Positions 1-16,938 of a DNA stretch of 58,652 bases are shown in pieces. The stretch's first letter is position 1, and every line of letters begins with the position of its first letter. The notes under the pieces are model-generated. The model did not search any database, had not been told where the DNA came from, and was given only the letters and a program-made list of their open reading frames with translations. The position numbers and the translations under genes are program-made. The stretch comes from a virus (Duplodnaviria > Caudoviricetes): the IMG/VR virus record IMGVR_UViG_3300025154_000110, positions 1 through 58,652 of that record, one strand, 5' to 3'.

Positions 1-5
1 CATTT

Positions 6-131
6 AAGAATCCCCTGCCAAGTCGCAGGGTGCGGAGCAACCGGCCCCTCCCTCCCCGGTTGCTCCGGTTTTAAATGATATGGTGCGCGAGGCCGCAAGG
101 TGGAAAGGCGCGGCACAGAAGGTTGCCGAGA
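6..131. repeat. Terminal direct repeat, copy 1 (126 bp; circular assembly overlap)
   Basis: AAGAATCCCCTGCC...AAGGTTGCCGAGA is identical to 58527-58652; bases 1-5 do not match the end copy. Confidence 0.95.
33..72 (+). terminator. Perfect 12-bp hairpin plus T-run inside the giant gene (terminator-like)
   Basis: CGGAGCAACCGG (33-44) / CCGGTTGCTCCG (56-67), 11-nt loop, followed by GTTTT. Confidence 0.45.
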
Positions 132-3100
132 CGCTTACCGACAAGAAGGCGCAGCTTGCATTATCCCGCCAAACGACCAAGGGCGACCTTGACGCCTATT
201 TGATGCGCAAGTTCGGAGTTGATGAATCGACAGCGCGGGACGTGAGCAACGAATTGACCCGACAGAATATCCCTGCCGACATGACGGCTGATCCTGCCGA
301 CTTTGCCAGTGAGCCGTGGAATACAAAGCCCACTCCCCCTGCGGTTTCGACCGAGGATCGGGTGGAGACATCCGCCCTTGCTTCTGATGATATGCGTGGG
401 CTGTCTTTCGCCGTAACAAACAAGGCCGGGGCGGTGGTAACGAGCGGAACTGTCCCGGCGCTTGCAGACCAAAAGCACGAAACATCAAAAGCTGAATATT
501 ACAGGGACCTTGCCGACAAGGCTGGCGGGGCGCTTTATATTTCCAGGACACGCGGAGCAAAGGTCTCATCTCCAGAGGAAGGGCTGATATTGGGGCGAAC
601 CTGGCAGCAAATTCAAGATATGCAGGCTGGGAAATATACACCTCCTGGCGTCAAGGCAAAAATGCCTGAAGGCGCGGTTGAGGTTTATTCATCCTCCACG
701 GCCTCCGACCTCCAGCCCCCCGCCCCTGTATCAAAAGGAGCGGAAAGCGAGAAGGAATCTGATCTGCCACGCGCAGAAACAGTCACGGAGCCGTCTACAA
801 AGGCGGCTCCAGCCTTAACGGAGCTTTCCCTGTTCAGAAACGGCGCAACACACACCGTCCCCGTGGAGAATTTGCATAGGTATCTCCTTGAAGAATTTGG
901 CATTGGCGGACAAGTCGAGAATACCCAGCAAGGCGTTGCTGTTGCGATCAATACTCATCAATCGGCAAATACGCTCAGGAAGGCGTTCAGCGACTACGAT
1001 ACAGTTGTCCTCTCGAAGGGCGGCGAACTTGGGCAGTATCTTTTAATTCGTCCAAAGGATGTTCGCAGTGAGGGAAGGAAACAACTTCCAGCCCCGCCAG
1101 CGGATAGTATCCCTGGCCCGACACCGGGGGAGAAATCCCCTGGTGTTTCTCTTGCCGACCTTGAGCAGCAGCTAGCAACCGCAACATCCTTAAAGGATAA
1201 GCGGGAGTTGCGGAAGCAGGTCAAGGAGATGAAGGTTGCACAGGAGGAGCCGAAACAGGCTGAAACCCCTGCGCCGGAATCAACCAATTTCCCCATATCC
1301 AAGCACGGTAGCGCGGCAATCCTCGTATCCGGCAACCCTGACGATATCAAGGCCAAGCTGGCAGCAGCAGGTATAAAGGCCAAGGGCCGGGTAAAGAAGG
1401 GGCGCGGTATGCTGTTCCCTGTGCGGATGGAGGGGGAGATCATGGCGGCACTGGGAGAAGTGAAGCCAATTAAGGCCGTGCCCGAAATGACGAAGGAGGA
1501 ATACCTTTCTAGCCAACAGGGCCGTGGAGATTTGTGGTTCCATGAACAGCAAATTCGCAGGAGGGTAGAGGGCGGTAACTTTATTTCCAAGAATATCCTT
1601 TCCGAGTATCCTGAACTGGTGGTTGAACTTGAGGCCGGGATAAAGTCAGGGGAATACTCAAAGGTTAGGGATGGGGAATTAATCAAGTATGTAAAAGGTG
1701 CTGGCAAGGCGGCGGATAGACGTGCGGCGCAGGACAACCGCATAGTAAAAGATTCAGACCTTGAAACGGCAGAAGATATAGGATCTCGGGTGCAATCAAT
1801 TAGCAAGCAAATTGAGGCACTTGATGATATCCAAAACCCCAAAGATTTCGATAAGCACAACGAGAAATACCGCAAACTTGTTGAACGACGTGAAACATTA
1901 GTAAACAAGGCAAACACCCTAAAGCGTGCCAAAAGTGATACTGTTCAACGCGATCAGGATAGAGTGGATACCGCTGGCGAAACAGAGGTTGCGCAGGCGG
2001 TTTCTGAAGAACCTCAAGGCGGGGAAGAAAAGGGTTCAAGCACAGAAGATGTCGGCCGGGAGCTCTCCTACAACAAGCGGAACCGACTCAAGGGGCTGAA
2101 GTGGTCCGACCTCGAAAAAATGGACCCGTCCCTTCGTGTGCGCGAAGCGGTCAAGAGTAAGGTCTATCCCCGCCCGGACTACCAGGCGATGATTGATTCC
2201 GGCATGAGGCCGCAGGTTGCCCATATAGTCAAGCAGGCTTACGACTCTATTCCCGCAAAACCGAGAAAGACAACGGACGAAGCGATTCAGCAGTACCTTT
2301 CTGCCATCACCATGGCGATGTCCAGGGTAACGGGCTGGGCAGAGTCGGCGGAATCCGATAAGTGGCTTGCCTCAATGGCAGATCGTGCGAGTCGCCGCCT
2401 TCAGCGCGGGGCCGTATCTGTTACCTCGATGATCGAGACGCCAAGCAAGAGCCTTTATGATACCGTGTTCCCCGGAGGGCGGAAAGCACAGGCCGATGAG
2501 GCGCGTATCCTTGGCCGGAAGTTTGTCGCAGCTATTCAGCCTGGACTCGATGAAGTCGTCAAGGCGATGAAGGATATCGAAAAGGGCTGGCCTGGCGCCG
2601 TGAAGGCATGGCAAAAGCGGGGCTTTTCCATTGTTGATGGAGTCGGCGCTACAGCCAGGGTATTCCTGGGGGAGAACGAGCGGCGCGGGAAGTACGCTTC
2701 AATCCATATCGAGATGGGCCGCAGCGGGATTACTGATTACATCATCCTTGATGGGGTGGAGAGCGAGAGCGACCCGGCAATCAAAGAATATATCGACAAG
2801 ACTCTTGCCGGGATCAACGGTAAAAAGTTGCTCCTGAACAAGAACGGCAAGCTGGTAAGCGCCCACGATACACAGGAGTCAGCAGAGGCGGCAGCCGAAG
2901 AACAAACCAAGCGGAAGGGCAAAGAAACGGTTTCCGATAGAGGAATTTCAGTAGAGCAGACGGAGCGGGAAGGGAAGCAACACCGGAAGGAAGGTGAGGA
3001 TATCAGCACTGAGCGGCTGGCTGAGGCCTTCGGATTCTCGGGGGTGAACTTCGGCAACTGGATGAAAGGCCAGGGCAACGCCAAGGAACGGCAACTGCAC

Positions 3101-6100
3101 GTCAATCATGCCTATGATTCATTCATGGACCTTGCCGATATTCTTGGAGTCCCGCCAAAGGCCATTTCGCTGAACGGTCTTCTTGGCATTGCCATTGGCG
3201 CACAAGGGACCGGCCAGTATGCGGCTCACTTCGTACCGGGGGTGAATGAGATCAACCTGACAAGGACCGGCGGGGCCGGATCGGTGGCTCATGAGTGGGC
3301 ACACGCCCTTGATCATTATTTTGCAAGGCAGGCAGGTCTTGAGCGGTCTTCGGTTCCGTTCCTGACAGAAACATTCATGGGTCGGCTGCAGGGCGATATC
3401 AGGCCGGAAATAGTTGGGCATTTCAAAAAGATTGTTGATGCGATGAACCGCCGGCCGATGACCGAAGAGGAGCTTGCGGCAAGACGTGAGAAGTCAGAGG
3501 ACCGCACATCGAGGAATATTGACGGCTGGCTTAAAGAAATTAGGCGCAAGGCGGTTGAGGGGATCGGCCCGGAAATTATGACTTTGCGCGACGGGCAAGA
3601 TGTTCCTGTCGTTTCGGAAGTTGACAGGCTGGTAGAGAGGATAAGGAGCGGTGATTTCGGGGAAGGAACTGTCCAGGTAACGAAGCCGGCGCACTATAAC
3701 GCCATCCCGACATTTCTTTCTCCAGCTGTTGCCGAGTTGCGCGACCTTCACAAGACAATTCAGCGGCGAGCCCCTGCCATTGACGATTACAAGGCGCTCC
3801 AGGCGAATATTGACAGCCTGAACTATCGCAAAAGTTCAGATGAGCAGCAAGCAAAGCATATTCCGCAAACGACAACAGAATATGCGAGCAACGCCGCAAG
3901 GCTTGACAAAGGGAAGGGCGGAAAGAAATATTGGTCAACTGATCTTGAAATGTTCGCCAGGGCCTTTGACGCCTATGTGAGCGACAAGCTGGCTGAGAAT
4001 GCCGCGAAGAATACCTATCTTTCCCATGCCGGAAGAATGGGCGAGACGGTCCCGACGGGAAAAGAGCGCGAGGATATCAGCCTGGCATTTGACAACCTCA
4101 TCAAAATCATAGAGAATAAGGAGACAGAGAAAGGCGTTGCCCTCTATTCTACAAGTGAGGGAACCGGCAAAGACTTCCTGTACTACGACATGGGGGAGGA
4201 CACCAGTGAACAGGCGCAAAAGGATAATGCTAAACTCCGTGCGATATTCACGCCACGTGCTGGCTCTGTCGTGGCGAACTCTATCAAGGTTGTCAATGTA
4301 TCCGGAGCTGTCCGGAACTTTGCCGACCGGATCACAACCGTGTTCGGTAGACGCGCTGTTTTCTATCGAGCGGCACCGGGCGCGGGGCTGCCAAACGGCT
4401 TAATTGACCGCAACGACCCGAAGACCATCTACGTCAACGTAGATTCTGGATTCTCGCCGTCCACCATCATCGGGCATGAAACTCTTCATGCCATGCGCAA
4501 AGAGCAGCCGGCCCTTTACAATTCCCTTCTTCGCGCAGCCAACCGCAATATCAAGGTCGAAGTCTTCAACGAATACCGCGACAAGCTGAAGCGAAACAAG
4601 TTCCTGCAGGGCCGGGACATCAACCAGGACTATGTTGTTGAGGAGATGCTGGCCGACTATCTTGGCGACCAGTTTTCAAAGCCGGAGTTCTGGGAGAGCC
4701 TTGCGGAACAGCGGCCGAGCCTGTTCAAGCGCCTGGTTGCCTTCGTCAAGGCGTTCCTCGATGATGTGATCACAAACTTCCAAGGAATGAAGAACTTCCA
4801 GTCCGATCAGTTCTTCCTCGATGTCCAGAAGATGCGCGATGTCGCGGTCAAGGCCATGGCGCAGTACGGCGGAGCCGAGGCGTTCGTTGGCATGGAGCCT
4901 ATGGATATTCGGTTTGCGGAACAGTTCGGTATTACCGCAGAAGAGGCGCAGCGGCAGTATGATGCGGTCGTCGCCGAGTTCAAAGGTACTGACCAGTGGA
5001 TGAAAGCCCCCAACGGCAAGCCGACCAAGCTGAACGAAAGGCAGTGGGTGCAGGTGCGGACTCCTGCGTTTAAGGAGTGGTTTGGGCCGTGGGATTCTGA
5101 CCCGAAGAACGCCAGCAAGGTTGTGGACGAGAACGGTGAGCCGATGGTGGTGTATCATACTCATGGGAGTGAAACTGAACTGACTGAATTTAAATATGCA
5201 CAGCTTCCTGGTGGTGAGAGTAGGTACGACGCTACTAAGAAGGGCGGGTTTACATTTGCCCTCGAAGGGCTTTCTACTGGGTGGTTTACCAGGAGAGAAA
5301 ATCAGTTCAAAACGTGGAAGAAGGAAGATGGAAGCAATGTAATTTCCGGGTTTGCCAATTTTAAAAACCCAATAGTTATTGAGCCTGGGCCATCAGAGCA
5401 AGCGGAGTTTCTTGATAAGAAGCGAAGATATGCAGAACTGCAGCAGAAACTCAACGCTGTTCGCAGCGGAAAGGAGTATTTGCCATTCAAGAAAGTAGGA
5501 GAGTTGCAGCAGGAGTTGTCCGAACTTGAAAAAGATATCAGGCCGGATTTACAAAAAGAGCGGCAGATACTCGACCTTGATAACCAGATAAACACTGGGT
5601 CGTCGTTATCGAAGACGAAGATAGCCGAGTTGCAGAGACATCTCACTAAGCTGGCTAAAGCAACAGGGTCTCCGAAGGAAATACGAAAACGGCAAACAGA
5701 GCGAGGGTACGCAGACCCATTTTATCAACTCAGCAAGATGGCGAAGTCTGCGCACCGCGAGTTCCCTGAGCTTGTGCCAGGGGCGGCGCTACGCAAGGCG
5801 CTGTTGCAGGAAGGTACAGATGGGATAATTCTCAGGAAGACTAACGCTGATACAACTACATCAGACACAGAAGTAACTGATTGGGTTGTCCCATTAACTG
5901 GGGGGACGCAAATAAAATCCGCCACTGGCAACACCGGCCAATTCTCCCCCTCCACGGATGATATAAGGTACAGCGTCCAGCAAGCAGACGCCGACTACCA
6001 CTCCGACCTTTCCGAAGCGGCCACCAACCTGAAGAACTCCCGCCCGAAGAACGATATTTCACCCTGGGCGCCGATCTATTCCACCATGGATTATATGTCC

Positions 6101-9100
6101 AAGCTGGTCGGCGCGGCACGGCGGGCGTTTCAATCGCAGATGGACCGGCACGACACCCGGGTAAAGTTCGAGCGGAATATCCTCGGGAAACTCGGTGAGG
6201 ATGACGGGCTTATCCATTACCTCGACAACCTCCGGAAGACCGACAAGGCATCTTACGACGAGGGCGGCGGATACCTGCTGGAGACGGACAAGAGCGGCGA
6301 GTCGTTCAGGATCAAGCGGGGCACCGGCTGGCGAGTATTCGACAAGAACGGAGAGAACATGGGCACGGCCGACACTCAGGAGGAAGCCAACGAGCTGGCC
6401 CGCGACCTGTACAATGCCGACAACGCCCACTTCATCACCCGGGTTGAAGGAAAAGACAAAGACGGCAAAGATGTACTGTTCTGGGGGGTTGCCGGGGAGA
6501 AGTTCACCACCTACACGGACGCGCAGCGGGAAGCGGCGAAACTTTCCCGGGAAGAAGGCCGGTACATTAAGGATTATGAGCCGGTAAAGGCCGAGTGGTG
6601 GGACGTGATCAATCCCAAGGGAACCACCATCAAAACCTTTGACGACGAGCAGGCAGCCAAAGTTGAAATGATCCTGGCCGAAGCTGACCAGATGGAGAAG
6701 GACGGCCACGGCGCTGCGGCTATTGAAATGGTTGCGGCCTTCCGGGGCGCTACCAACCGGGCCTTTGATCTCCAGGTCGCGGATATGCGGCAAATGATCA
6801 AGGACGCCGAAGAGCAGGGCCTTGACATGCCGACGGTATCGGGTCCGGATGAATCGCGGCGCTGGGCAATATTTGACCGCGGCCGCAAGCTGGCCGAGTT
6901 TGAATCTCAAGACCTGGCTGAAGAGCATGTCACAGAACTGAAGAAGACGGCGCCACGGTATCAGGGATACACCGTCAAGCGGCAGAAGGACGGCGAAATA
7001 ATGAAAGAGTTCACCATGAAGGAGATGATTTCCCTCATGGGCGACCTGCGGGGATCATACTTCCCCCGGCAGCGCCAGCGCGGCGCCATCGTTCTGAGAG
7101 CCATTCACCCGGAGACCGGCGAGAAGGTCAGGGAGAACTTCGACCTTTACGCCCCAGAGCGGGAGACGGTAGACCCGGAGACCGGGCAGGTGATCAACTC
7201 GAAGACCAGGCAGGCCAGCAATTATATCAAGAAGAAGTTCAACCAGGCAACCGGGCATGTGCCATTTGTGCCGACTCTGGAGAAGCGGGCGCGTGAACTG
7301 CGCCGGCAGGGCTTTGAGATCAGTATCGAGCGCGACCAGGCCATGCCGGAAGCGGTCTTTGAAGCGGCGCACCTGATGGCCTCTGTCCATTCCCTGATGA
7401 CGGACGCCATGAACAAGAGCCAGAAGCAGGCGAACGCTACCATGGGCAAAGCCTACCACGAGTTCAACAAGGTGATGACGGAACAACTCGCCGGTATCTT
7501 CAAGGCCCGCGGCTATCTCTCGTCCAGGTTGCGGCGCTCAGAAGATTACTGGCAGGGGTTCGAGACTGACCCGACCAAGGCTATTGCGCAGTATTCAACC
7601 GGTCTTGCGGCCGGGCTCGCCAAGCGGCAGGCGGTCAAAGAGTTCGTGCTGGCCGTGACCGGGCGCGATGTCTCCTGGAAATCCTGGAAGGAAGAAAACG
7701 AGGGCGGCGATTGGGAAGGCTACCAGGCGTTTGTTGAGGACAGGCGTATTGACCCGGTAAAGCAGCCGAATATGTACAAGGAGACGATGAACTGGGGCCG
7801 CGAGGTATTCCGCAACGAAGAGCAGGCGGACCGGATCATCGGCACCTTGCGCGGCCTGGCCAGCATCAAGTTCCTCGGATTCCGGGTATCGTCCGCCTTT
7901 GTCAACGCCATGAACATGGTGCAGGCCGTGCCGGCGACCATCTCCGCCCTGACCGGAGGCAGCTTGACCGCGGCCTTCGGTTCAATCCGGCGGGCAGCGG
8001 TAGCCTACGGGAAATACCGTATGCAAAAGGGTTCGACGGAAGACCACAAGATTTTCGCCTATATCCACGGTCAGGGTTGGGATGCAGCTCAATTCAACCA
8101 TGAGGCATCGGCGGCGCTCAGGTCGAAGGCCGGCAACGCGATGAGCAATTTCATCGGGGCTTCCATGTGGATGTTTGGCAAAGTGGAAGAAGCGAACCGC
8201 TCCATGACCATTCATGCCGCCTATGACCAGTTCATCAGGCAGGCGAAGGCAAGCGGCGCGGACCTCGATATCGACCCGGAAACCGGTATTGATACTGCTT
8301 TGATGCTCAGGGCAAAGCAGGTATCAGACCAGAGCCACGGCATTTACGACAAGGGCACGGCGCCGGCCTGGACCCGGGGCGCAGCAAACCCGGTGAAGAT
8401 GCTCTACACCTTCATGAAGTTCCAGCACAACTACCTCCTGAACATGGGGGAGATGATCGGCCGCGACCAGTGGAAGCAGGCCGGGTACATGCTCCTTTCT
8501 CCGGCGATCCTTGCCGGGGCCGGGGCCAGCTTGGCGACCAAGGCCCTATTCCTGGCCCTTGGGCTCGGGGGTGACGGTGACGATCCGGAAGAGAAATTCT
8601 ATGCCTGGGCGGAAGAAACATTCGGTTCAGATACGCCTTTCCGGCATGGGCTGGCTGGTTTCGCCGGTATCAACCTGAAAGGCTCCATCCAGATGAACAA
8701 TCCCCTGCCGACTAGGCTTAGTGAAGTTTTTGGAGCACCAGGGGCGATCTTCACCGACACCGCCAAGGGGATCAAGCATTTCACCCGGGGCGAAGTTTAT
8801 AAAGGGGTTGAAGCTATCGCTCCTACAGCCTTCGGCACGATGTCCCGGGCCGTCAGGGAATACCGGGAGGGCGTGACCACTGGCGGCTATGGCCAAGTGT
8901 TCTACGGAACGGAACCGCTCAAGGCTGATGGCATGGACGCGGCGCTCAGGTTCTTCGGGTTCAACCCTTCGTGGATATCCGGGATCAGGGAGAAGCAGTG
9001 GAGCGAGAAGAAGGTTGCAGCCCGGCTCTCCCGGAGAAAAGACGAGATTCATTCCCGGCTCAAGCGGTTCCTTTTGCAGGATCCGGAAGACAGAGATATG

Positions 9101-9274
9101 GGCGATTATGCCGAGATAATGAAGATGGTGGATTCGCTCAACGAGGATATTCTTGCGGTCGGCAGGGCGGATATCAGCCCAATAACCAACAAGAGCCTGA
9201 AGGCGGCAATGAAGCGGGCCTTCCAGCCGAACAGGCGCGAAAAGGTGCGGGCCGCTGAAAATGATGAAGAATAG
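80..9274 (+). CDS. Giant polyvalent internal virion / DNA-ejection protein, C-terminal 3064 aa (continues in frame from 55907 across the junction)
   Basis: LPD5-like segment (KSKVYPRPDY), zincin HEWAH at 3290 with an LPD1-like YWSTDLEMFARAFDAYV, second HETLH at 4475, ART-PolyVal-like region (RTPAFKEWFG...VVYH...KNP...DGII...QIKSATGN), helical C-terminus; position typical of podophage giant genes. Confidence 0.88.
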   Translation: MVREAARWKGAAQKVAETLTDKKAQLALSRQTTKGDLDAYLMRKFGVDESTARDVSNELTRQNIPADMTADPADFASEPWNTKPTPPAVSTEDRVETSALASDDMRGLSFAVTNKAGAVVTSGTVPALADQKHETSKAEYYRDLADKAGGALYISRTRGAKVSSPEEGLILGRTWQQIQDMQAGKYTPPGVKAKMPEGAVEVYSSSTASDLQPPAPVSKGAESEKESDLPRAETVTEPSTKAAPALTELSLFRNGATHTVPVENLHRYLLEEFGIGGQVENTQQGVAVAINTHQSANTLRKAFSDYDTVVLSKGGELGQYLLIRPKDVRSEGRKQLPAPPADSIPGPTPGEKSPGVSLADLEQQLATATSLKDKRELRKQVKEMKVAQEEPKQAETPAPESTNFPISKHGSAAILVSGNPDDIKAKLAAAGIKAKGRVKKGRGMLFPVRMEGEIMAALGEVKPIKAVPEMTKEEYLSSQQGRGDLWFHEQQIRRRVEGGNFISKNILSEYPELVVELEAGIKSGEYSKVRDGELIKYVKGAGKAADRRAAQDNRIVKDSDLETAEDIGSRVQSISKQIEALDDIQNPKDFDKHNEKYRKLVERRETLVNKANTLKRAKSDTVQRDQDRVDTAGETEVAQAVSEEPQGGEEKGSSTEDVGRELSYNKRNRLKGLKWSDLEKMDPSLRVREAVKSKVYPRPDYQAMIDSGMRPQVAHIVKQAYDSIPAKPRKTTDEAIQQYLSAITMAMSRVTGWAESAESDKWLASMADRASRRLQRGAVSVTSMIETPSKSLYDTVFPGGRKAQADEARILGRKFVAAIQPGLDEVVKAMKDIEKGWPGAVKAWQKRGFSIVDGVGATARVFLGENERRGKYASIHIEMGRSGITDYIILDGVESESDPAIKEYIDKTLAGINGKKLLLNKNGKLVSAHDTQESAEAAAEEQTKRKGKETVSDRGISVEQTEREGKQHRKEGEDISTERLAEAFGFSGVNFGNWMKGQGNAKERQLHVNHAYDSFMDLADILGVPPKAISLNGLLGIAIGAQGTGQYAAHFVPGVNEINLTRTGGAGSVAHEWAHALDHYFARQAGLERSSVPFLTETFMGRLQGDIRPEIVGHFKKIVDAMNRRPMTEEELAARREKSEDRTSRNIDGWLKEIRRKAVEGIGPEIMTLRDGQDVPVVSEVDRLVERIRSGDFGEGTVQVTKPAHYNAIPTFLSPAVAELRDLHKTIQRRAPAIDDYKALQANIDSLNYRKSSDEQQAKHIPQTTTEYASNAARLDKGKGGKKYWSTDLEMFARAFDAYVSDKLAENAAKNTYLSHAGRMGETVPTGKEREDISLAFDNLIKIIENKETEKGVALYSTSEGTGKDFLYYDMGEDTSEQAQKDNAKLRAIFTPRAGSVVANSIKVVNVSGAVRNFADRITTVFGRRAVFYRAAPGAGLPNGLIDRNDPKTIYVNVDSGFSPSTIIGHETLHAMRKEQPALYNSLLRAANRNIKVEVFNEYRDKLKRNKFLQGRDINQDYVVEEMLADYLGDQFSKPEFWESLAEQRPSLFKRLVAFVKAFLDDVITNFQGMKNFQSDQFFLDVQKMRDVAVKAMAQYGGAEAFVGMEPMDIRFAEQFGITAEEAQRQYDAVVAEFKGTDQWMKAPNGKPTKLNERQWVQVRTPAFKEWFGPWDSDPKNASKVVDENGEPMVVYHTHGSETELTEFKYAQLPGGESRYDATKKGGFTFALEGLSTGWFTRRENQFKTWKKEDGSNVISGFANFKNPIVIEPGPSEQAEFLDKKRRYAELQQKLNAVRSGKEYLPFKKVGELQQELSELEKDIRPDLQKERQILDLDNQINTGSSLSKTKIAELQRHLTKLAKATGSPKEIRKRQTERGYADPFYQLSKMAKSAHREFPELVPGAALRKALLQEGTDGIILRKTNADTTTSDTEVTDWVVPLTGGTQIKSATGNTGQFSPSTDDIRYSVQQADADYHSDLSEAATNLKNSRPKNDISPWAPIYSTMDYMSKLVGAARRAFQSQMDRHDTRVKFERNILGKLGEDDGLIHYLDNLRKTDKASYDEGGGYLLETDKSGESFRIKRGTGWRVFDKNGENMGTADTQEEANELARDLYNADNAHFITRVEGKDKDGKDVLFWGVAGEKFTTYTDAQREAAKLSREEGRYIKDYEPVKAEWWDVINPKGTTIKTFDDEQAAKVEMILAEADQMEKDGHGAAAIEMVAAFRGATNRAFDLQVADMRQMIKDAEEQGLDMPTVSGPDESRRWAIFDRGRKLAEFESQDLAEEHVTELKKTAPRYQGYTVKRQKDGEIMKEFTMKEMISLMGDLRGSYFPRQRQRGAIVLRAIHPETGEKVRENFDLYAPERETVDPETGQVINSKTRQASNYIKKKFNQATGHVPFVPTLEKRARELRRQGFEISIERDQAMPEAVFEAAHLMASVHSLMTDAMNKSQKQANATMGKAYHEFNKVMTEQLAGIFKARGYLSSRLRRSEDYWQGFETDPTKAIAQYSTGLAAGLAKRQAVKEFVLAVTGRDVSWKSWKEENEGGDWEGYQAFVEDRRIDPVKQPNMYKETMNWGREVFRNEEQADRIIGTLRGLASIKFLGFRVSSAFVNAMNMVQAVPATISALTGGSLTAAFGSIRRAAVAYGKYRMQKGSTEDHKIFAYIHGQGWDAAQFNHEASAALRSKAGNAMSNFIGASMWMFGKVEEANRSMTIHAAYDQFIRQAKASGADLDIDPETGIDTALMLRAKQVSDQSHGIYDKGTAPAWTRGAANPVKMLYTFMKFQHNYLLNMGEMIGRDQWKQAGYMLLSPAILAGAGASLATKALFLALGLGGDGDDPEEKFYAWAEETFGSDTPFRHGLAGFAGINLKGSIQMNNPLPTRLSEVFGAPGAIFTDTAKGIKHFTRGEVYKGVEAIAPTAFGTMSRAVREYREGVTTGGYGQVFYGTEPLKADGMDAALRFFGFNPSWISGIREKQWSEKKVAARLSRRKDEIHSRLKRFLLQDPEDRDMGDYAEIMKMVDSLNEDILAVGRADISPITNKSLKAAMKRAFQPNRREKVRAAENDEE

Positions 9275-9275
9275 T

Positions 9276-9304
9276 TTGATTTTGGCTTGTGTTTTTCATA
9301 TAAT
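9276..9304 (+). promoter_or_regulatory. Sigma70-type promoter
   Basis: TTGATT-N17-TATAAT. Confidence 0.7.
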
Positions 9305-9385
9305 GGGAATAGCGAAATTATACTTTACCCGTACCAGGTAATATAAAGAGGACACGGCCATGTAGCGGACATGACTTTACATCGA

Positions 9386-9483
9386 GAATAACATCGGTTC
9401 CCGAATTTCCCTGCAAGCGCAGGATCGAATGAGGCCCGACAAGCGAAACGGTATCAGCGCCGTTCTTCTTGTCGGGCTTTTTT
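9386..9483 (+). ncRNA. Structured leader/attenuator RNA, copy A
   Basis: GAATAACATCGGTTCC...GAGGCCCGACAAG...CTTGTCGGGCTTTTTT; paralogous to 33702-33798 with compensatory changes. Confidence 0.7.
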
Positions 9484-9513
9484 ATTTTCTAGGCCATCTT
9501 CGAGAGGAGAATC

Positions 9514-10029
9514 ATGAAAAGAAATACCTTGCTTTTGATCGTAGCCCTGCTGGCGCTGCCGTCGCTTTCATTTGCCGGCGGAGCCTGTGTCTTGCAAGAG
9601 GTCGGCGGCAACTACATCTACCAGGGCCAGATGCTCTTCGAATGCACGGCCAGCTCCACAGACGCCTCAATGTCGCACACCTTCGACGGGACACATAGCC
9701 TTGACGCTATTACTATGGCTCTGCTTGACGGCCGGTATGTCAAAGGTGCACTGGCCTATGACGGCGCCGGTACGGACCCCACCACCAATACTTCCCTGAC
9801 AGTTACGGACAGCGACGGCTTCATCTATGTCAACCCGGCCAGTAACGGCCTGGAGGTGATTGATTCCGGAGGGAAAAACTCATTCTACTTCCTGGGGCCT
9901 GACGGGAATGCCGGCTTTCGTAGCCTTCCTGGCGGTAAACCGCTGACCTTCGCCTGGAACGGAAACCTGGTCAATAGCGGGGTCCATTACCTTCTGCTCG
10001 ATGTCACCGGAGAGAGGAACGCGCGATGA
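9514..10029 (+). CDS. Signal-peptide-bearing beta-rich protein (putative virion-associated)
   Basis: MKRNTLLLIVALLALPSLSFA leader; GAGGAG SD; first gene after attenuator A. Confidence 0.75.
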   Translation: MKRNTLLLIVALLALPSLSFAGGACVLQEVGGNYIYQGQMLFECTASSTDASMSHTFDGTHSLDAITMALLDGRYVKGALAYDGAGTDPTTNTSLTVTDSDGFIYVNPASNGLEVIDSGGKNSFYFLGPDGNAGFRSLPGGKPLTFAWNGNLVNSGVHYLLLDVTGERNAR

Positions 10030-11429
10030 AAAAGCTGATAATTCTCTCATCCCTCCTGCTTCTCGCCCTCCCGGCCGTCGCTGCAGAGAAGTATCTGCGC
10101 GTTGACGATTATATCCCGGCCATCCCTCCCCCCTGCCGCGCTCCAATCCCCTACGTGGCTGCATCTTACGATGGGACAAACTGCTACGTACCGGCTGATG
10201 TTTTCCGCGATGTGGTGGAAGCTCTGCCCGCCGCGGTAGTAGTAGACGACACCCCCAGCGAGGGCAACACGACCGAGGCGGCAAGCTCCAACTCGGTGTA
10301 TGACCATACGGTAGATACTACGGATGTCCACGGTCAGACCGATATGGATAATCCCGTTTTCGACAGTGCCACCGTTGAAGCCACGCTTGGGGCCAACGCC
10401 GTGACGATAGATGCAACCTGCACCGGATGGTCTGCTGGTGGAGCCTTGCTTGACTGCGGGGCCGGGAACACAAACGGGTGGTGCTGTAACGCTTCTACCT
10501 CAGTGCAGAAAATCGCGGATGGTACTACTGCGATTACCTACAATGCCGGGGAAGCAGACGGCCAAGATGTTCAGCTTGTTTATACCACAAGTGGCCTGAG
10601 TGGAGGCAATATTAGCGCCTCTGGCGGTGGGATTACGCTGTCTGCTAACTCGACAAACAATACATTTACTGTAAACGGAACATTTACGGGAACAGGGAAT
10701 CTCACATTCACCCCGTCTGTAACAGGTGTGCGGGTAGTCCTCAGTGGTGTTTCAGTAAAAGCGATTACCAACGGCGCGGCAACGACCTATGGGGAAACCT
10801 CGAAGGGTAACTATGTATCGTATTTTGCGGGGACGGAGAAATATAAGAATTTCTATATTGATCCATACAATACTGGTCCAGCAACCACCTCGCCCGGAAT
10901 GTGGCACGATGGCACATATTTCCGTATCGGGTCTGTAGTCGCAGGCGGAGTCCCGGTATATGTGCAGGGAGGTAGTGTCACTTTACAGGCAAACGGCACA
11001 GTTTCGAGCCTTCTATGGGACGGGCAGGGGCTCTACCCGACAGCAGGTGATATGTTGTTTGGTTACAGCAAATTTGGGACAAAATTTCCAGTATACAAAG
11101 TCGCGGTAAGCGATATCGTAAATACCAATAGCGGCGCTGTTCCTGTTTTATCCTCCTGCGGCACGACCCCCGCTGTTGCTACAGGTTCGAGTAATTTTTC
11201 TGGTAAAATAACCTTTGGCACATCTGCCGGCACTCCATCTGCCTGTACATTAACCTGGGGCGTTGCATACACCAATACTCCTGAATGTACCGTAACTGTA
11301 GTCGGCGCAGTTGATGCATATTTACGAATTACAGCAGAAAGCAACACCGCGATGACCGTGACTGCTTCCGGTGCATCTGATTTAAGCAGCACATCCTTTA
11401 ACTACAACTGTGTTGGTTTGAATGAATGA
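10026..11429 (+). CDS. Signal-peptide-bearing tail fibre / receptor-binding-like protein
   Basis: MKKLIILSSLLLLALPAVAA leader; T/G/S-rich beta repeats; Cys-containing C-terminal tip (LSSCGTTP...SACTLTW...FNYNCVG). Confidence 0.7.
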   Translation: MKKLIILSSLLLLALPAVAAEKYLRVDDYIPAIPPPCRAPIPYVAASYDGTNCYVPADVFRDVVEALPAAVVVDDTPSEGNTTEAASSNSVYDHTVDTTDVHGQTDMDNPVFDSATVEATLGANAVTIDATCTGWSAGGALLDCGAGNTNGWCCNASTSVQKIADGTTAITYNAGEADGQDVQLVYTTSGLSGGNISASGGGITLSANSTNNTFTVNGTFTGTGNLTFTPSVTGVRVVLSGVSVKAITNGAATTYGETSKGNYVSYFAGTEKYKNFYIDPYNTGPATTSPGMWHDGTYFRIGSVVAGGVPVYVQGGSVTLQANGTVSSLLWDGQGLYPTAGDMLFGYSKFGTKFPVYKVAVSDIVNTNSGAVPVLSSCGTTPAVATGSSNFSGKITFGTSAGTPSACTLTWGVAYTNTPECTVTVVGAVDAYLRITAESNTAMTVTASGASDLSSTSFNYNCVGLNE

Positions 11430-12124
11430 GTATGGACGAGTGGAATAATTACAACTGGCCGCTTATCTCGTTCGCCTTTGACGATGGTGGGGTGAATACC
11501 TATACCGCTGGGCTGCCGCTATTCCAGGGTTTTGGTGTGCCTGCTTGTGTAGGGATCATTGCAACGTACCCCGGCAACGAGGTTGCAGCAATGACCTGGG
11601 ACCAGCTTCGTGGATTACAGTCCGCGGGGTGGGAGATTTGCAGCCATAGTTACGACCACGATTTGGCAGGCTGGTATCCTCAAAGCGAAGAGTTTATGAC
11701 TACCCAAACAATCGCATCAATGGAAGCTCTGACAGCACAAGGACTGAAAGTAAGTAATTATATTTGTCCGGGTGCTACTCCATTCCCGTATGATGTAGTG
11801 CCGGATTCAGTAAAACATTATCACAGTGCCAGAATGACAAATGTAGGCGTAAATCAGATGCCCCTGGCGTGTCCAGCAGTTTGGCAGTTGAAGGTGCAGA
11901 ACCTTGATGGCAGGGACATTGCTACATGCAAGGCTATAATTGATACAGAGATGGGTTACGCCGCAAAAGGGTCACGACATTGGATTATTTTTTACGGACA
12001 TCAATTTAACGCTGCTGATGTAACATTTTTAACTGAGTTGCTGACATATATCCAGAGTAAAAACCTCGGCATATACACGATTCAGCAGGCGTTAGATATT
12101 GGTGGGGTTGTTCGGAATGACTGA
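11426..12124 (+). CDS. Polysaccharide deacetylase (NodB/CE4 family)
   Basis: FAFDDG, WEICSHSYDH, YICPG and IFYGH motifs. Confidence 0.85.
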   Translation: MSMDEWNNYNWPLISFAFDDGGVNTYTAGLPLFQGFGVPACVGIIATYPGNEVAAMTWDQLRGLQSAGWEICSHSYDHDLAGWYPQSEEFMTTQTIASMEALTAQGLKVSNYICPGATPFPYDVVPDSVKHYHSARMTNVGVNQMPLACPAVWQLKVQNLDGRDIATCKAIIDTEMGYAAKGSRHWIIFYGHQFNAADVTFLTELLTYIQSKNLGIYTIQQALDIGGVVRND

Positions 12125-12711
12125 TGACATCCTGGGATAAATGGGTAGTTATCATAATCATCATGCTGATGGTAACTCTGGCCGTCCAGTCCAGAGGCAC
12201 GGTGATAGAAGGAGCTTTCGAGGATTGCGATTGGGAGTGGCGACCGTGGGCAACAAATGCGAGAGCATGGGATAAACCAGATCAGTTTTACGAGATCGGC
12301 CACGGATACTCCAGAGCGTTCTACCCATACTGCGGGCGGGACATGGTTATCCCTGAAAACATCGCGGCTGGTGGGTACGGCTTTGGCTTCTTTGCATCGT
12401 GCAGCGGCCTTTGCTCCACGGCGGACGGAACTTTTGCCGAATCGGTTGACGAGGCGGTTGGCTACTGCGGAATGGACGAAGCGAGCTGCGCTGAGTGCTG
12501 GCCGCAGACAGTGGCTTGGCAGGATACTTTCTACCGGGAAATGAGCAACGGGGCAGAGGTACAAGAGGCATTTGACGCAGCGATGAACGCGGTCCCGGCC
12601 TGCCTACCCTGTCTGCGTTATCACAAGAAACGTGAGCCGGAACAGGTGAACGAAACGCAGGTTGTACTGGCTACGGTAATCGTTCCGTGGCTGATGCGGT
12701 GGAGAGAATGA
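12124..12711 (+). CDS. Exported Cys-rich protein, putative clan CD (caspase/gingipain-like) peptidase
   Basis: N-terminal hydrophobic leader, GHG and FFASC dyad-like motifs, FY..M..G..V.EAFDAA C-terminal helix, hydrophobic C-tail. Confidence 0.5.
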   Translation: MTSWDKWVVIIIIMLMVTLAVQSRGTVIEGAFEDCDWEWRPWATNARAWDKPDQFYEIGHGYSRAFYPYCGRDMVIPENIAAGGYGFGFFASCSGLCSTADGTFAESVDEAVGYCGMDEASCAECWPQTVAWQDTFYREMSNGAEVQEAFDAAMNAVPACLPCLRYHKKREPEQVNETQVVLATVIVPWLMRWRE

Positions 12712-12908
12712 AAATCAAACTCAGCGGCAAGGTTAAAAGTCCCCTCGGATCATGCCCATACTGCACGAAGCAGATTGTTGGGGAGAAGTTTATCAAGACG
12801 GCTTCTGAGAAGAAACTCATTGGCCCGTGTCCGCACTGCGGTGAACTACTGCGTTATTATATTATCAATCCTCACGTTTTCGTGAAGGTAAAAAGGGGGG
12901 AATCATGA
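12708..12908 (+). CDS. Small zinc-ribbon protein
   Basis: CPYC...CPHC; ATG overlaps the upstream stop. Confidence 0.6.
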   Translation: MKIKLSGKVKSPLGSCPYCTKQIVGEKFIKTASEKKLIGPCPHCGELLRYYIINPHVFVKVKRGES

Positions 12909-13672
12909 AACGACTTATCATTTTATCGCTGGCAATATTCATCACCTGTGGGAGTTGTTCGGCGTACTCCATGGGGTATTTTCCTAAAGACGATCCGGCA
13001 CCTACGCCAACCCCTGTTCCAGTTCCCGATCCGCCAGCGCAGACGGTCACAACTGAGTACGGCGAGCGCAAGGTTTACAACAGCGAGGTGGATTTTCATT
13101 TCACAAAACCTATTGCGGCCTACGGCAAGTTCAACCTCACCATCGCTGGGAAGAAATACACGATCCAGACCAGTTACAAAGACGTCGTAATCGAGGTTCG
13201 CAACTCGCAGACAACCGGCAAGATGGTGGTTATCGCCGGGGCCGGATATAAGGACAAGACCGCGACCGTTACCTATCCTTCGACCGACGCCCTGACCAAG
13301 CCTGACACCACCCCGCTTCCGGTGACGCCCCCGACTGACGGAGCGATTGAATCAAAGCGGTTTGCCCACATCAACCACATGAGTTGGAAGGGCCAGGGAA
13401 CCACCATTGTTTTCTGCGCCGGGGATGATGTTACCAGTGTAACTTTCCATGATACTCCGTTTCATTTTCACATGAAGGACGGCACGGACAAAGGACCGGG
13501 CCGGGAACAGTGGACAAACCATTACTTTCAGAAAAAGAGCGAGACGCAGACCGCAGGCTGGTTTGTATGGACCATCGGCGGGAAAACGCACAAATACTAT
13601 TCTGATGGGCGCGGGGATGGACTGAGTGACTACCAGAAGCATACCGGGGACTGTTACAAGAAATACAACTGA
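12905..13672 (+). CDS. Exported protein with signal peptide and Pro-rich linkers
   Basis: MKRLIILSLAIFITCGSCSA leader; PAPTPTPVPVPDPP linker. Confidence 0.7.
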   Translation: MKRLIILSLAIFITCGSCSAYSMGYFPKDDPAPTPTPVPVPDPPAQTVTTEYGERKVYNSEVDFHFTKPIAAYGKFNLTIAGKKYTIQTSYKDVVIEVRNSQTTGKMVVIAGAGYKDKTATVTYPSTDALTKPDTTPLPVTPPTDGAIESKRFAHINHMSWKGQGTTIVFCAGDDVTSVTFHDTPFHFHMKDGTDKGPGREQWTNHYFQKKSETQTAGWFVWTIGGKTHKYYSDGRGDGLSDYQKHTGDCYKKYN

Positions 13673-13682
13673 GGAGGAAAGC

Positions 13683-13883
13683 ATGAACGTGAATACTGGG
13701 CACCTTGTTAGTAATGACTTTTGGGACACAACACCTACCGCTGACAGGTCGAACTACCAAGAGATCCCCGCGCACCTGAACCGTGCCGCCAGGAGAAAAC
13801 TCGCTGGCAGGAACGAAGCAAAGGTAGCTCTGAATTCTGGTGGCAAGCTGTCACGCTGGGCACGGAAGCAGAGATCAAAGTAA
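13683..13883 (+). CDS. Small basic hypothetical protein
   Basis: GAGGAGG SD before MNVNTGHLV. Confidence 0.6.
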   Translation: MNVNTGHLVSNDFWDTTPTADRSNYQEIPAHLNRAARRKLAGRNEAKVALNSGGKLSRWARKQRSK

Positions 13884-13894
13884 GGAGGGGAAAC

Positions 13895-14104
13895 ATGAAA
13901 CTATTTATTGCTTTGGGATTTGCTCTGATGCTGGCCGGCTGTGCAAACAGTAGCCGGAACTTGACGGTGAAAGTGTACGACGGCGGGACGCTGATGATCT
14001 GTCACTCTACCATTTCCCCGGAGGTCATGAAGTCGAACACGGACGAAAGGGCTACGAACACTCCTGACATCAAGCCGGAAGTTACCATCCCGCTGGTCCC
14101 GTGA
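13895..14104 (+). CDS. Small lipoprotein (possible o-spanin-like)
   Basis: Lipobox LAGC after hydrophobic leader; in the lysis cluster. Confidence 0.65.
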   Translation: MKLFIALGFALMLAGCANSSRNLTVKVYDGGTLMICHSTISPEVMKSNTDERATNTPDIKPEVTIPLVP

Positions 14105-14114
14105 GGCGGAACGG

Positions 14115-14303
14115 ATGTTTCTTAAATTAATTCTCCCAGCAATTTTTCTCAGCGCCGGATGGTTTTTTATCGGGGCATCGGCGGTAATGGCGTCGGTTGA
14201 CTTCACTGATTTCTCTTTCGTTACCGGCGAATCCGTTAGGGTTTGTGCTGTAGGAATAGCATTGCTTGGGCTGGCAGGTTTAAGTTTCTTCTATTTTAAT
14301 TGA
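14115..14303 (+). CDS. Small two-TM membrane protein
   Basis: Two hydrophobic segments. Confidence 0.5.
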   Translation: MFLKLILPAIFLSAGWFFIGASAVMASVDFTDFSFVTGESVRVCAVGIALLGLAGLSFFYFN

Positions 14304-14311
14304 GGGGTATT

Positions 14312-14512
14312 ATGAATATATTTGAGCAGGCATGGGATTTCTTCGACAAAAAGAAAGTCGCAATCGGCTCTCTCCTGATGATGATTGCGATAGTCATGCG
14401 AAATAATCTGCCGGAATATGCAGGGTGGGCAGATGTTATCGAGGAAATAGGTCTTCTGCTTGGTGGCATCGGATTCGCCCACAAAGCTGTGAAGGAGTAT
14501 CGCGGTGAGTGA
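14312..14512 (+). CDS. Holin-like two-TM protein
   Basis: KKKVAIGSLLMMIAIV...LLLGGIGFAHKAVK; GAGGGG SD. Confidence 0.55.
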   Translation: MNIFEQAWDFFDKKKVAIGSLLMMIAIVMRNNLPEYAGWADVIEEIGLLLGGIGFAHKAVKEYRGE

Positions 14513-14927
14513 GTACGACGGTCAGCTAGATACCGAGGTCTATTATCGGGACAACCTCAAGTATGTTACTGCACGGCGTCATGCGTACAAGACCAAGTTG
14601 CGGCCAGGGCGCGACATCTACGGCAAGTTCGTCTCACTCCTGACGTGCGGCGTTTTGATCATCGAGGAAGGCTGCCCCTGGAATGGTGCGAACGTGGTCC
14701 CGGACAGGCGGACAAACATGCGAGCCTCGCTCATCCACGATACTCTCGTTGGCATGATCCAGGCCGGTATCCTTGATCCAAAGTTTAAAACTGAAGTTGA
14801 CGAAGAATATTATGACACCTGCCGCCAGGACGGGATGTGGCTATTCCCGGCAATCACTGAATTTTGGGGTGTTCAGCTTCATACTTGGGAACGAACTCCA
14901 ATCGACGCAATAAAGGTGGCACCATGA
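14505..14927 (+). CDS. DUF1353-like protein
   Basis: W-N-G-A...RASLIHD..., D..Y...C..DGM pattern typical of lysis-cluster DUF1353-type genes. Confidence 0.55.
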   Translation: MSEYDGQLDTEVYYRDNLKYVTARRHAYKTKLRPGRDIYGKFVSLLTCGVLIIEEGCPWNGANVVPDRRTNMRASLIHDTLVGMIQAGILDPKFKTEVDEEYYDTCRQDGMWLFPAITEFWGVQLHTWERTPIDAIKVAP

Positions 14928-15115
14928 AGAAAAACAGCAAGATATATGTTAGCAACACCGGCCTGGACTGGCACAAGCGATATTTCTCTCACTGGCTTGA
15001 CGGACGAGCAATCTGTTTCACTGGTGGCTGCACTTCGTGGTCTGCGGACGGAACTGCTTCATGGGAATTCTGGAAAGATAAACAAGGCAGAATCAAAACG
15101 ATACTAAACAAGTAA
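14924..15115 (+). CDS. Hypothetical protein
   Basis: W..RYFSH..DG...CF.GG.TSWS motif; coupled to the upstream stop. Confidence 0.55.
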   Translation: MKKNSKIYVSNTGLDWHKRYFSHWLDGRAICFTGGCTSWSADGTASWEFWKDKQGRIKTILNK

Positions 15116-15153
15116 GCCTGTGAGCCCATAGGGCCGGGGCAAAGGATGGAGCA

Positions 15154-15471
15154 ATGGAAGCTGGCGAAGCGGCAAGCTATGGGAAACTGGGGGTGCTTGT
15201 GTTTACAGCGTTCTCTGCAGTATCGGCCTTTGTCTGGAAGGCTCATCGGCACGGGGAAAAGATTGAAGATTTGGAACGAGCCGTTTTCCCGGATGAACCA
15301 GGGCGCAAGCTATTAACTCTTGATTGGCATGATCGGATCCAGGCCGAATGTGAGCGGCAGAGGGCAAAAGACATGGAGATTTTGTCAGCTCATATTGTTG
15401 AACAGCTCCGCGATAAACTGGATGAGATCAAGAATGAATTCTGGGAGCGGAGAAGGGAGCCACGGCAATGA
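15154..15471 (+). CDS. Membrane-anchored coiled-coil protein (holin/i-spanin-like)
   Basis: N-terminal TM followed by charged helix. Confidence 0.55.
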   Translation: MEAGEAASYGKLGVLVFTAFSAVSAFVWKAHRHGEKIEDLERAVFPDEPGRKLLTLDWHDRIQAECERQRAKDMEILSAHIVEQLRDKLDEIKNEFWERRREPRQ

Positions 15472-15587
15472 GCAGGCTCACAAAGCAATACCTGGCGATG
15501 GCAGGCGCGATCCTCGGCCCGGTGCTGACGTTCATTTATTTCTGGTTCTGCGGGTATGAACCGGAGTGCTGGTGGTGTTTGCTATGA
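15468..15587 (+). CDS. 39-aa membrane peptide (not in ORF track)
   Basis: MSRLTKQYLAMAGAILGPVLTFIYFWFCGYEPECWWCLL; ATGA overlaps at both ends. Confidence 0.5.
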   Translation: MSRLTKQYLAMAGAILGPVLTFIYFWFCGYEPECWWCLL

Positions 15588-15814
15588 GCGATAATCTGCC
15601 CTGCATCTGTGGGGGAAACTGGAGAAAGATTGTCAATGAAGCAGAAGCATTGCTCGACAAAACGTTCTGCTGCGATGGCAGAAAATATATATTCTACGGG
15701 GTAGTGCACGGCTCCGACGATTATTATTACGGAATGGTTGACTGCGAGAACGGTAAATGCAGGCTTCTGTCATGTGTCGGCTCAATTGAACAGCATGGGT
15801 TTAGCCTAATATGA
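15584..15814 (+). CDS. Hypothetical Cys-containing protein
   Basis: FYGVVHGSDDYYYGM...LLSCVGSIEQHGF. Confidence 0.6.
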   Translation: MSDNLPCICGGNWRKIVNEAEALLDKTFCCDGRKYIFYGVVHGSDDYYYGMVDCENGKCRLLSCVGSIEQHGFSLI

Positions 15815-16143
15815 GCGGCCAGTGGCGGGAGCAGGTTGTAAAGCGGGCCACTAGAAGCAACGGATGGGCCAAGGTAAGGGCTGAACACCTTGAAAAGAAT
15901 CCTGCCTGCGCATGCTGCGGGAAAACGGTGAAATATCTCAAAACGTTTCGGATGCAGGTACATCACAAGATGCCATTCCACATCGTGCCGGAATTGGAGC
16001 TTGACTCGAAAAACCTCATCACCCTCTGCGGAGATCCATGTTGCCACTTCGACAAGGGGCATCCGCGGAACTGGAAATCGCACAACAAGAACGTTGTCCG
16101 GGACTGCGCGGTATGGCTGAGGAAATACAGGAGCAAGCCATGA
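15811..16143 (+). CDS. HNH endonuclease
   Basis: CACCG...QVHH...NLITLC...CHFDKGH. Confidence 0.85.
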   Translation: MSGQWREQVVKRATRSNGWAKVRAEHLEKNPACACCGKTVKYLKTFRMQVHHKMPFHIVPELELDSKNLITLCGDPCCHFDKGHPRNWKSHNKNVVRDCAVWLRKYRSKP

Positions 16144-16865: not shown

Positions 16866-16896
16866 ACTCCGTCCTACCCCTCCTCGCGGGACGGTA

Positions 16897-16938
16897 GCCC
16901 CACCCGGCAACTCCCTCTCCGGCGTGGGGCGTTTTATT
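16897..16938 (+). terminator. Intrinsic terminator between convergent operons
   Basis: GCCCCACCCGG / CCGGCGTGGGGC then GTTTTATT. Confidence 0.6.

Follow-up and report, generated by a model that had tools for sequence, protein, structure and literature searches.

The two structured segments at positions 9386-9483 (copy A) and 33702-33798 (copy B) of the analysed DNA are real copies of a phage RNA element that was previously undescribed. The family to which they belong comprises 37 distinct sense sequences from 36 phage records, including GenBank MK170447.1, and in each of them a short conserved motif and a bulged hairpin are followed by a strong intrinsic terminator. The element is most likely a conditional stop signal. 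We favour, at a probability of about 45%, its interpretation as a factor-dependent antitermination cassette, with a linked small protein as the candidate factor.

The window, i.e. the whole stretch of 58,652 nucleotides, is a complete circular phage genome of ~58.5 kb. Bases 6-131 recur at 58527-58652 (the first 5 bases mismatch), and this 126-nt overlap of the contig ends indicates circularity. The giant ORF listed at 80-9274, read across the junction, is open back to 55874 with its first ATG at 55907; the encoded polyvalent protein has ~3,960 aa, not 3,064 aa, and contains LPD1 and ART-PolyVal domains. Minus-strand ORFs at 55925-58087 are spurious because the plus-strand frame is open through them. 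A very stable hairpin with a U run lies at 9-76 (same sequence at 58530-58597), inside the giant ORF; as a candidate terminator signal of the element it was rejected, since it sits within this ORF and is not a transcription signal. A single plus-strand unit spans from 33819 over the circular junction to 9274. The units and the internal terminator discussed below are as follows.

33819-58652, plus strand: late unit, part 1, from copy B to the contig end, assigned by PHROG matches
1-9274, plus strand: late unit, part 2, the rest of the giant polyvalent ORF, with its stop at 9274 just 5' of copy A
9514-16727, plus strand: genes 3' of copy A, accessory and lysis functions
41435-41487, plus strand: intrinsic terminator without the element (-28.4 kcal/mol, 8 U), within the late unit, 5' of 41592 and of the capsid gene

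The first-pass annotation had placed both copies before late operons, and this was right. Downstream of copy B, a 56-aa ORF is followed by terS (34143), terL (34666), the portal gene (36219), the major capsid gene (42628), other virion genes and finally the start of the giant ORF at 55907 (PHROG), whereas the recombination and replication genes (SbcC-like, RecT-like, DnaD-like, NinB) lie 5' of copy B. Copy A precedes the genes for a signal-peptide protein, a 467-aa protein, a protein with a polysaccharide deacetylase domain and others, through the endolysin gene at 16038-16727, and this unit closes at a terminator at 16872-16939. Repeats were also observed in the window: a tandem array of at least 14 units of 15 nt at 21464-21767 inside the ORF 21384-21971, which would encode a five-residue repeat and whose PHROG matches are all of unknown function; 63-nt coding repeats at 49408-49822 (ORF 48715-49881); and a GAACAG hexamer array at 31414-31479 within the DnaD-like gene 30985-31842.

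Copies A and B show 83% column identity over 106 columns. The shared 20-mer GAATAACWTCGGYTCCYGAA occurs exactly twice in the window when up to 3 mismatches are allowed, compared to 0.02 expected occurrences, and none of 100 shuffles reached two; TGAGGCCCGACAA is exact in both copies. Alignment and 20-mer count thus bear out the sequence blocks that had been reported as common to the two copies. In the fold of each copy, a small hairpin at the 5' end and a second one precede the long terminator hairpin; the fold energies are -40.9 kcal/mol (z -5.3) and -45.4 kcal/mol (z -5.8), and none of 200 dinucleotide shuffles was as good. The parts of the two copies and the promoter-like sites before them are listed here.

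9276-9304, plus strand: sigma70-like promoter before copy A, TTGATT-17-TATAAT, 10/12, right after the giant gene stop, 81 nt 5' of copy A
9386-9404, plus strand: copy A flank and motif, A-rich GAAUAACAU at 9386-9394 and motif CGGUUCCCGA at 9395-9404
9405-9430, plus strand: copy A bulged hairpin, AUUU-C-CCUGC-[AAGC]-GCAGG-AUC-GAAU, from fold and covariation
9431-9483, plus strand: copy A linker GA and terminator, hairpin 9433-9477, U tract 9478-9483, -25.6 kcal/mol
33660-33688, plus strand: sigma70-like promoter before copy B, TTGACA-17-GATAAT, 11/12, ending 13 nt 5' of copy B
33702-33720, plus strand: copy B flank and motif, A-rich GAAUAACUU at 33702-33710 and motif CGGCUCCUGA at 33711-33720
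33721-33748, plus strand: copy B bulged hairpin, AGUU-C-CCGGU-[AACCAA]-GCCGG-AUC-AACU, from fold and covariation
33749-33798, plus strand: copy B linker GA (33749-33750) and terminator, hairpin 33751-33793, U tract 33794-33798, -27.5 kcal/mol

The stem covariation described earlier for the two copies (CCUGC/GCAGG vs. CCGGU/GCCGG and AUUU/GAAU vs. AGUU/AACU) is real, and both stems belong to a single bulged hairpin. Copy B is partially covered by contigs of other groundwater runs. In one of them, copy B is diverged: U33730 is replaced by C, turning the U.G pair with G33737 into a C-G pair, and all other changes lie in the loop. The CAGCG that had been seen in both terminator loops is indeed present in both apical regions of the window, but only 6 of the 37 family members have CAGCG anywhere in the terminator.

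The family was assembled with covariance models and a single pattern scan. R1, a model based on the window copies A and B alone, matched two copies in a related 13-kb viral fragment, one in the terL/portal gap (31.0 bits) and one in the scaffold-like/capsid gap (27.7 bits); with cmsearch, the L008 copy scores 31 bits. With model R2, built from six sequences, copies at the same two positions were found in L037, L038, and L042, the sole carriers among 80 IMG/VR portal relatives, and one copy was found 5' of the portal gene of L127 among 80 metagenome loci. The pattern scan of IMG/VR matched 74 stretches, and ~30 of the new loci scored 30-55 bits with R2; R2 also detected second, off-pattern copies in already matched records (L214:8524, L186:9403, and L193:734). 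These three, window copy B, L127, and MetMV are members outside the scan pattern. Specifically, the pattern fixed CGGTYMCNKA, RGCCC, and GGGCYTTTT, and since 30 of the 37 sequences were ascertained by it, the search itself accounts for part of the conservation at these positions. No constraint was placed on the hairpin, the linker A, the A-rich flank, the remaining terminator stem or the gene context.

The GenBank record MK170447.1 was reached by tblastn with the linked small protein, and its element scores 25.3 bits with R2 and 36.6 bits with the family-level covariance model R3. This record (L255/L256, "Methanosarcina virus MetMV") carries an archaeal-virus label, yet the small protein and the element are present (14520-14972), and its head module includes a bacterial-type hairpin with a U8 terminator. 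With filters off, R3 found exactly two copies in the window (60.0 and 55.9 bits); the next match (26.3 bits) is a bare terminator. Among 92 portal-related loci, R3 detected the element only in L037, L038, L039, and L042, with a doubtful match in L030 (26.6 bits), so that the element is patchy among relatives. Nine records hold two copies (the window, L037, L038, L039, L186, L193, L205, L214, and L243). The G+C content at the element ranges from 39 to 57% across the family, and some of the element records are near-identical phages from different samples.

Other regulatory-looking structures of the window lie outside the family. At 19302-19453, TTGACA-17-GATAAT is followed by a structured leader of ~130 nt and a strong terminator (19391-19453) before HNH-type genes; R3 gave 20 bits, for the terminator part only. 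On the minus strand, an intrinsic terminator at 24224-24286 within the plus-strand early region is preceded by the motif-like CGGUCCCCGGA; it lacks the bulged hairpin and scored 26 bits with R3. The terminator at 41435-41487 gave no match to R3, and no promoter-like site was seen by eye in the sequence surrounding it.

Neither the whole window nor any of 7 related loci matched an Rfam 15 family at gathering threshold. The top match for 9200-9600 in E-value mode was anti-hemB with 18 bits, compared to a gathering threshold of 49.5 (E 0.076). Two of the checks that the first-pass annotation had suggested thus have an outcome: no described Rfam family matches (whole window, 7 related loci), and covariance-model searches do find homologues. 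Full-text searches of main articles on the motif, on put sites and processive antitermination, and on structured RNAs of phages revealed no description of the element. BLASTN of copy A against GenBank phages returned chance matches only (E about 3). A scan of viral contigs for the exact 20-mer GAATAACNTCGGNTCCNGAA yielded 5 stretches, all of which were judged by eye to be unrelated coding sequence and discarded. Relatives of terS and terL were few (2 loci and 1 locus); before terS of L009, a promoter, a leader and a terminator are present, but the sequence is unrelated.

From 5' to 3', the element consists of an A-rich flank, the motif CGGUYAC-N-GA, a hairpin with a 3' bulge, a GA linker and an intrinsic terminator starting with RGCCCG. 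The flank is A/U-rich, mostly A, unpaired, and often reads AUAA(C). At least 35 of the 37 sequences share each of the motif bases C1, G2, G3, U4, C7, and A10, and position 8 is variable (U 23, A 7, C 4, G 3). In the hairpin, a bulge of 1-3 nt on the 3' side lies between the outer helix (3-5 pairs) and the inner helix (3-8 pairs); the loop is free in sequence and 3-10 nt long. The linker is usually GA, with the A present in 36/37. The terminator ends with CGGGCY followed by U5-8 and has a median energy of -26.3 kcal/mol; all 37 members have the G+C-rich hairpin and U tract of an intrinsic terminator, with U5-8 in 35/37 as parsed.

Covariation was counted on a model-fitted alignment of 38 distinct rows. 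Paired cells amounted to 93.7%, compared to 73.5% in shuffles, and the covariation score was 0.498, a value that none of 500 shuffles reached, compared to 0.146 in shuffles; sliding the helix partners lowered the score to ≤0.15. In the outer hairpin helix, 11-20 sequences per pair contribute with both sides changing, and in the inner helix 2-14 sequences per pair; most hairpin pairs and 7 of the 9 modelled pairs of the terminator stem show double-sided changes. Two stem-loops, ~45 nt in total, precede the terminator, the first being a mini-hairpin of 3-4 pairs in the motif. This mini-hairpin shows no covariation (its middle pair is G.U in 22 sequences, G-C in 4, unpaired in at least 4, and gapped or unpaired in the rest), and the region is read as conserved sequence, not as a proven helix.

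Some further structural ideas were discarded. The idea that the outer helix's 3' strand and the sequence preceding the motif compete for one pairing partner fits window copy B, L039:8482, and L127 and fails in L214, L193, and L217. That the 3' bulge might be a K-turn, and that CGGUUAC might be complementary to the 3' region of 16S rRNA, were our own assumptions; neither gained support, and both were dropped. Members of the L037-L042 clade have, after both element types, UUUUGGCCAAAAAYCAG (L039:2606-2625 and 8570-8590), which forms a palindrome with the U tract, and in window copy A, GGCCA occurs soon after the U tract (9484-9500).

Every copy lies between co-directional genes of head or late modules. 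The upstream neighbours are the small protein gene, terL, a scaffold-like gene, GroES-like genes or ORFs of 447-451 aa; the downstream neighbours encode portal, major capsid, head-tail adaptor, a 255-270-aa coiled-coil (scaffold-like) protein or small zinc-ribbon-like proteins, with the portal gene downstream in L214, L243, L190, and L039 and the major capsid gene downstream of L039:8592. A co-directional gene with a Shine-Dalgarno sequence starts 4-225 nt downstream in 34/37 sequences. Such an ORF starts ≤30 nt past the 3' end of the model match, which already includes the U tract and a few bases, in 18/37, and the upstream ORF stops ≤15 nt from the element in 21/37. No copy at an operon end or between convergent genes was seen among the 37 sequences. 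In L039, for example, 30 nt separate the scaffold stop from the element with its terminator, and the capsid start codon follows after a further 23 nt.

A second conserved leader of ~90 nt, UCGGGCAGACCGGCC...GGUUCCGAGGAAGGAG, was observed in several relatives and in MK170447.1. It is placed between the terminator of the element and the gene of the 255-270-aa coiled-coil, scaffold-like protein. The window lacks this leader, and no Rfam family matches it. Its locations are given below.

L213:1690-1770: second leader
L248:2345-2420: second leader
L255:3397-3478: second leader
L193, about 6265-6350, minus strand: second leader
L187, about 3955-4035, minus strand: second leader

A sigma70-like site was present ≤110 nt upstream in 9 of 36 members and in 1 of 34 control windows. 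Three of these nine sites match at 11/12 and have the geometry of window copy B: in window B, L188, and L250, TTGACA-17-GATAAT ends 18-22 nt before the motif. The first-pass annotation had put each window copy just downstream of a sigma70 promoter, which holds for copy B and less so for copy A with its more distant 10/12 site. Promoter proximity is not a defining trait of the family, as a close upstream ORF stop is found in 21 of 37 sequences and a promoter-like site in only 9 of 36 members.

The gene spacing often leaves no place for a promoter before or after the element, and essential genes can therefore be transcribed only by read-through. As the capsid gene of L039 and similar essential genes need the passage of a strong terminator, a logic of conditional termination is suggested. 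Any polymerase at the terminator has just transcribed the element. A constitutive terminator that cancels itself would be pointless, which favours a regulated factor acting in trans. Furthermore, the terminator without the element at 41435-41487 stands between copy B and the capsid gene, so that antitermination starting from copy B would need to persist.

A different mechanism had been proposed from the window alone, namely that the 5' UCGGyUC segment pairs with the 5' strand of the terminator (GAGGCCCGA) to give mutually exclusive terminator and antiterminator folds. In such an autonomous switch, a ligand, temperature or kinetics would set the fold. In its favour, a UCGG/CCGA contact with flanking pairs can be drawn in both window copies, and the CGG of the motif and the CCG at the terminator base are both nearly invariant. 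The pairing is weak, however, with -6.8 and -7.5 kcal/mol compared to -25.6 and -27.5 kcal/mol for the terminators, and no stronger than chance when the 5' segments are shuffled (z -0.78 and -0.85). Across the family, the 5' segment against the 5' half of the terminator gave a mean z of -0.11, with 2 of 37 sequences below -2, and the median duplex energy was -5.2 kcal/mol vs. -26.3 kcal/mol for the terminator. In terminators starting with GAAGCCCAGC or GAAGCCCACC, the CCG partner is wholly absent, and by inspection the bases flanking CGG and CCG do not covary. The antiterminator pairing thus amounts to a near-invariant contact of 3 bp (CGG/CCG) with an extension that is inconsistent in relatives, and exclusive folds find no conserved alternative pairing to rest on. 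Additionally, a typical ligand pocket would require a larger stretch of unpaired conserved sequence. Given chance-level complementarity, missing CCG partners and the rarity of CAGCG, an autonomous two-fold switch is not supported, and we regard it as very improbable; the evidence points to a trans-acting factor instead. The role akin to nut, put or qut sites, which had been suggested together with the switch, stays plausible for a structured, covarying RNA before late genes.

The best candidate for a trans-acting factor is a small protein, on the basis of its co-occurrence with the element and its adjacency. Its gene in the window is located directly before copy B.

33452-33646, plus strand: small-protein gene, 64 aa from an internal ATG, ORF as listed 33395-33646

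The window protein has an N-terminal helix, followed by a beta segment with ...TGQIKMILNCNGGDI... The family to which it belongs comprises proteins of 50-85 aa with an N-terminal helix and a C-terminal TGK..I.I.vN.SQGG(I/L)GDvY signature. An HMM was built from 12 of these proteins and searched against all ORFs of 254 loci and the window. It matches the window protein at 2.5e-14 and hits 27 ORFs at E<0.01, all in element-bearing loci, six of them in loci outside the HMM building set. In the ~210 element-free loci, there was no match at E<0.01, and relaxing to E<50 added nothing credible. The protein is present in 26 of 36 element records, and in 16 of 37 sequences the end of its gene lies ≤110 nt before a copy. 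The 10 element records without a homologue are all fragments, and include L037 to L042, the closest element-bearing relatives of the window. MK170447.1 and several relatives carry the gene not at an early/late boundary but within the head module, where terminase and portal precede it and the scaffold gene follows. Shared ancestry of head modules may account for part of the co-occurrence.

No Pfam, PHROG or PDB match was found for the small protein. Its Atlas matches are unnamed clusters only, with scores below 0.9, and in a collection of 5.8 billion proteins it matches 25 clusters, none of which has a Pfam domain and which are annotated as "hypothetical" save for two apparent automatic mislabels. 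The AlphaFold model is weak (pLDDT 61) and shows a helix and then a beta hairpin. The protein may resemble small proteins of the YezD/DUF2292 type.

In the factor-dependent reading, the A-rich flank, CGGUYAC-N-GA and the bulged hairpin would form the recognition part of a module that is completed by the GA linker and the strong intrinsic terminator. By default, polymerase would terminate ~100 nt past the copy-B promoter or, for internal copies, where the preceding gene ends. At late stages of infection, binding of a trans-acting factor to motif and hairpin on the nascent RNA would let polymerase pass. The factor would probably leave polymerase resistant to termination, because a terminator without the element lies further downstream in the late unit. 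A role that is only local or structural would be just as compatible with the invariable 2-nt distance to the terminator. The 50-85-aa protein, often encoded directly upstream, is the candidate for this factor, and the arrangement would mirror that of lambda Q beside PR'-tR'. A more specific version seems possible but doubtful: a new antitermination system in which the 50-85-aa protein recognises motif and hairpin at the fused terminator and makes polymerase processive, with two loading sites gating head and late genes.

Next in rank, and on the whole unlikely, is a constitutive leaky terminator or RNA-end module that sets the ratio of upstream to downstream message or provides stable ends without any antiterminator, the conserved motif being a site for a host factor, e.g., RNase, Hfq or ProQ. 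The terminator is always part of the unit, at a fixed 2-nt spacing and with a conserved base, the 5' flank is A-rich and unpaired, and attenuation is plausible where copies follow large structural genes (the 447-451-aa ORFs of L193 and L197, the scaffold gene of L039). Against this, terminators of such strength (median -26 kcal/mol, U5-8) precede capsid and scaffold genes without promoter space, which is the opposite of what stoichiometry needs; the element is never seen at an operon end or between convergent genes and nearly always has a co-directional gene downstream (34/37); and the linked small protein is left unexplained. A put-like element, in which the folded RNA itself would bind RNA polymerase and confer termination resistance without a phage protein, appears improbable. 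Such an element would agree with the presence of two similar copies in a genome, with the pair of small stem-loops and the compensatory changes found in each, and with the element-less terminator downstream in the late unit; one copy is promoter-proximal and one farther away, as described for putL and putR (PMC9378689). The part before the terminator, however, has ~45 nt with a mini-hairpin of 3-4 pairs instead of two stem-loops of ~30 nt, many copies are far from any promoter, and the linked protein would be a coincidence. Moreover, the element always abuts its own terminator, which constitutive activity would render useless.

Lower still in our ranking, although ahead of the autonomous switch, we place the idea that the copies near a promoter (window B, L188, L250, and others) encode trans-acting small RNAs of ~100 nt, with the internal copies as 3'-end-derived versions. 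The 11/12 site 18-22 nt before the motif and the strong terminator would indeed produce a discrete RNA of ~100 nt in window B, L188, and L250. A promoter-like site is found in only 9 of 36 copies, though, all copies are co-directional and in front of genes, and the conserved single-stranded segment has 10 nt, for which no target complementarity was found. Thus, the factor-dependent antitermination cassette is ranked above the leaky terminator, the put-like RNA, the small-RNA gene and the autonomous switch, in this order.

To our knowledge, few processive or terminator-specific antitermination systems are understood, namely N/nut, Q/qut, put, RfaH/ops, LoaP, and conAn-type systems. Each of the understood systems has informed on the control of RNA polymerase. 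The module described here is compact (~100 nt), defined by sequence, present in at least 36 phage records and located directly before essential capsid and portal genes, and as a candidate partner protein of ~60 aa accompanies it, the question is directly testable. For annotation, the motif flags late or structural transcription units, and the "hypothetical" small-protein family provides candidate regulators.

Among known systems, lambda Q with qut and PR'-tR' resembles the arrangement in window B, L188, and L250, where promoter and terminator follow each other within ~100 nt directly 5' of late structural genes; a small gene for a candidate regulator directly upstream and more terminators inside the late unit add to the likeness. 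However, qut belongs to the promoter DNA, where it functions together with a promoter-proximal pause that depends on sigma, whereas the conserved part here is transcribed RNA with covarying helices, and most copies lack a promoter. A promoter location of the qut type was not found as a rule, with a promoter-like site ≤110 nt upstream in 9/36 and an ORF stop ≤15 nt upstream in 21/37. As the small protein has no Pfam match, it does not belong to a Q family represented in Pfam.

BglG/SacY-RAT and ANTAR systems are similar in that a protein-binding RNA structure is set directly against an intrinsic terminator in a leader. In their targets, the bound structure overlaps the 5' strand of the terminator, whereas in the element 2 nt separate the hairpin from the terminator stem, and a conserved alternative pairing is absent. 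A search against Pfam revealed no CAT/PRD or ANTAR domain in the small protein. With lambda N/nut (boxA-boxB), the element shares a conserved single-stranded segment followed by a hairpin on nascent RNA and more than one copy per genome. In contrast, neither the length (3-10 nt) nor the sequence of the hairpin loop is constant across the 37 members, so that there is no conserved loop of the boxB type, and the conserved segment is presumably unlike boxA.

The putL and putR sites of HK022 are, according to PMC9378689, two similar structured RNAs acting in cis, one promoter-proximal and one farther downstream, with stems kept by compensatory changes ahead of terminators, and the put RNA is described there as acting alone on the beta' zinc-binding domain of RNA polymerase, without a protein factor. 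The element is similar in having two structured RNAs per genome, promoter-proximal and downstream, with compensatory stem changes. Compared by description, put has ~70 nt, two substantial stem-loops, no protein and no fusion to a terminator, whereas the element has ~45 nt before the terminator, a 10-nt conserved motif and a linked protein gene. The sites nut, put, and qut load far from terminators; the element differs from all three in standing at a constant distance of 2 nt from its own terminator.
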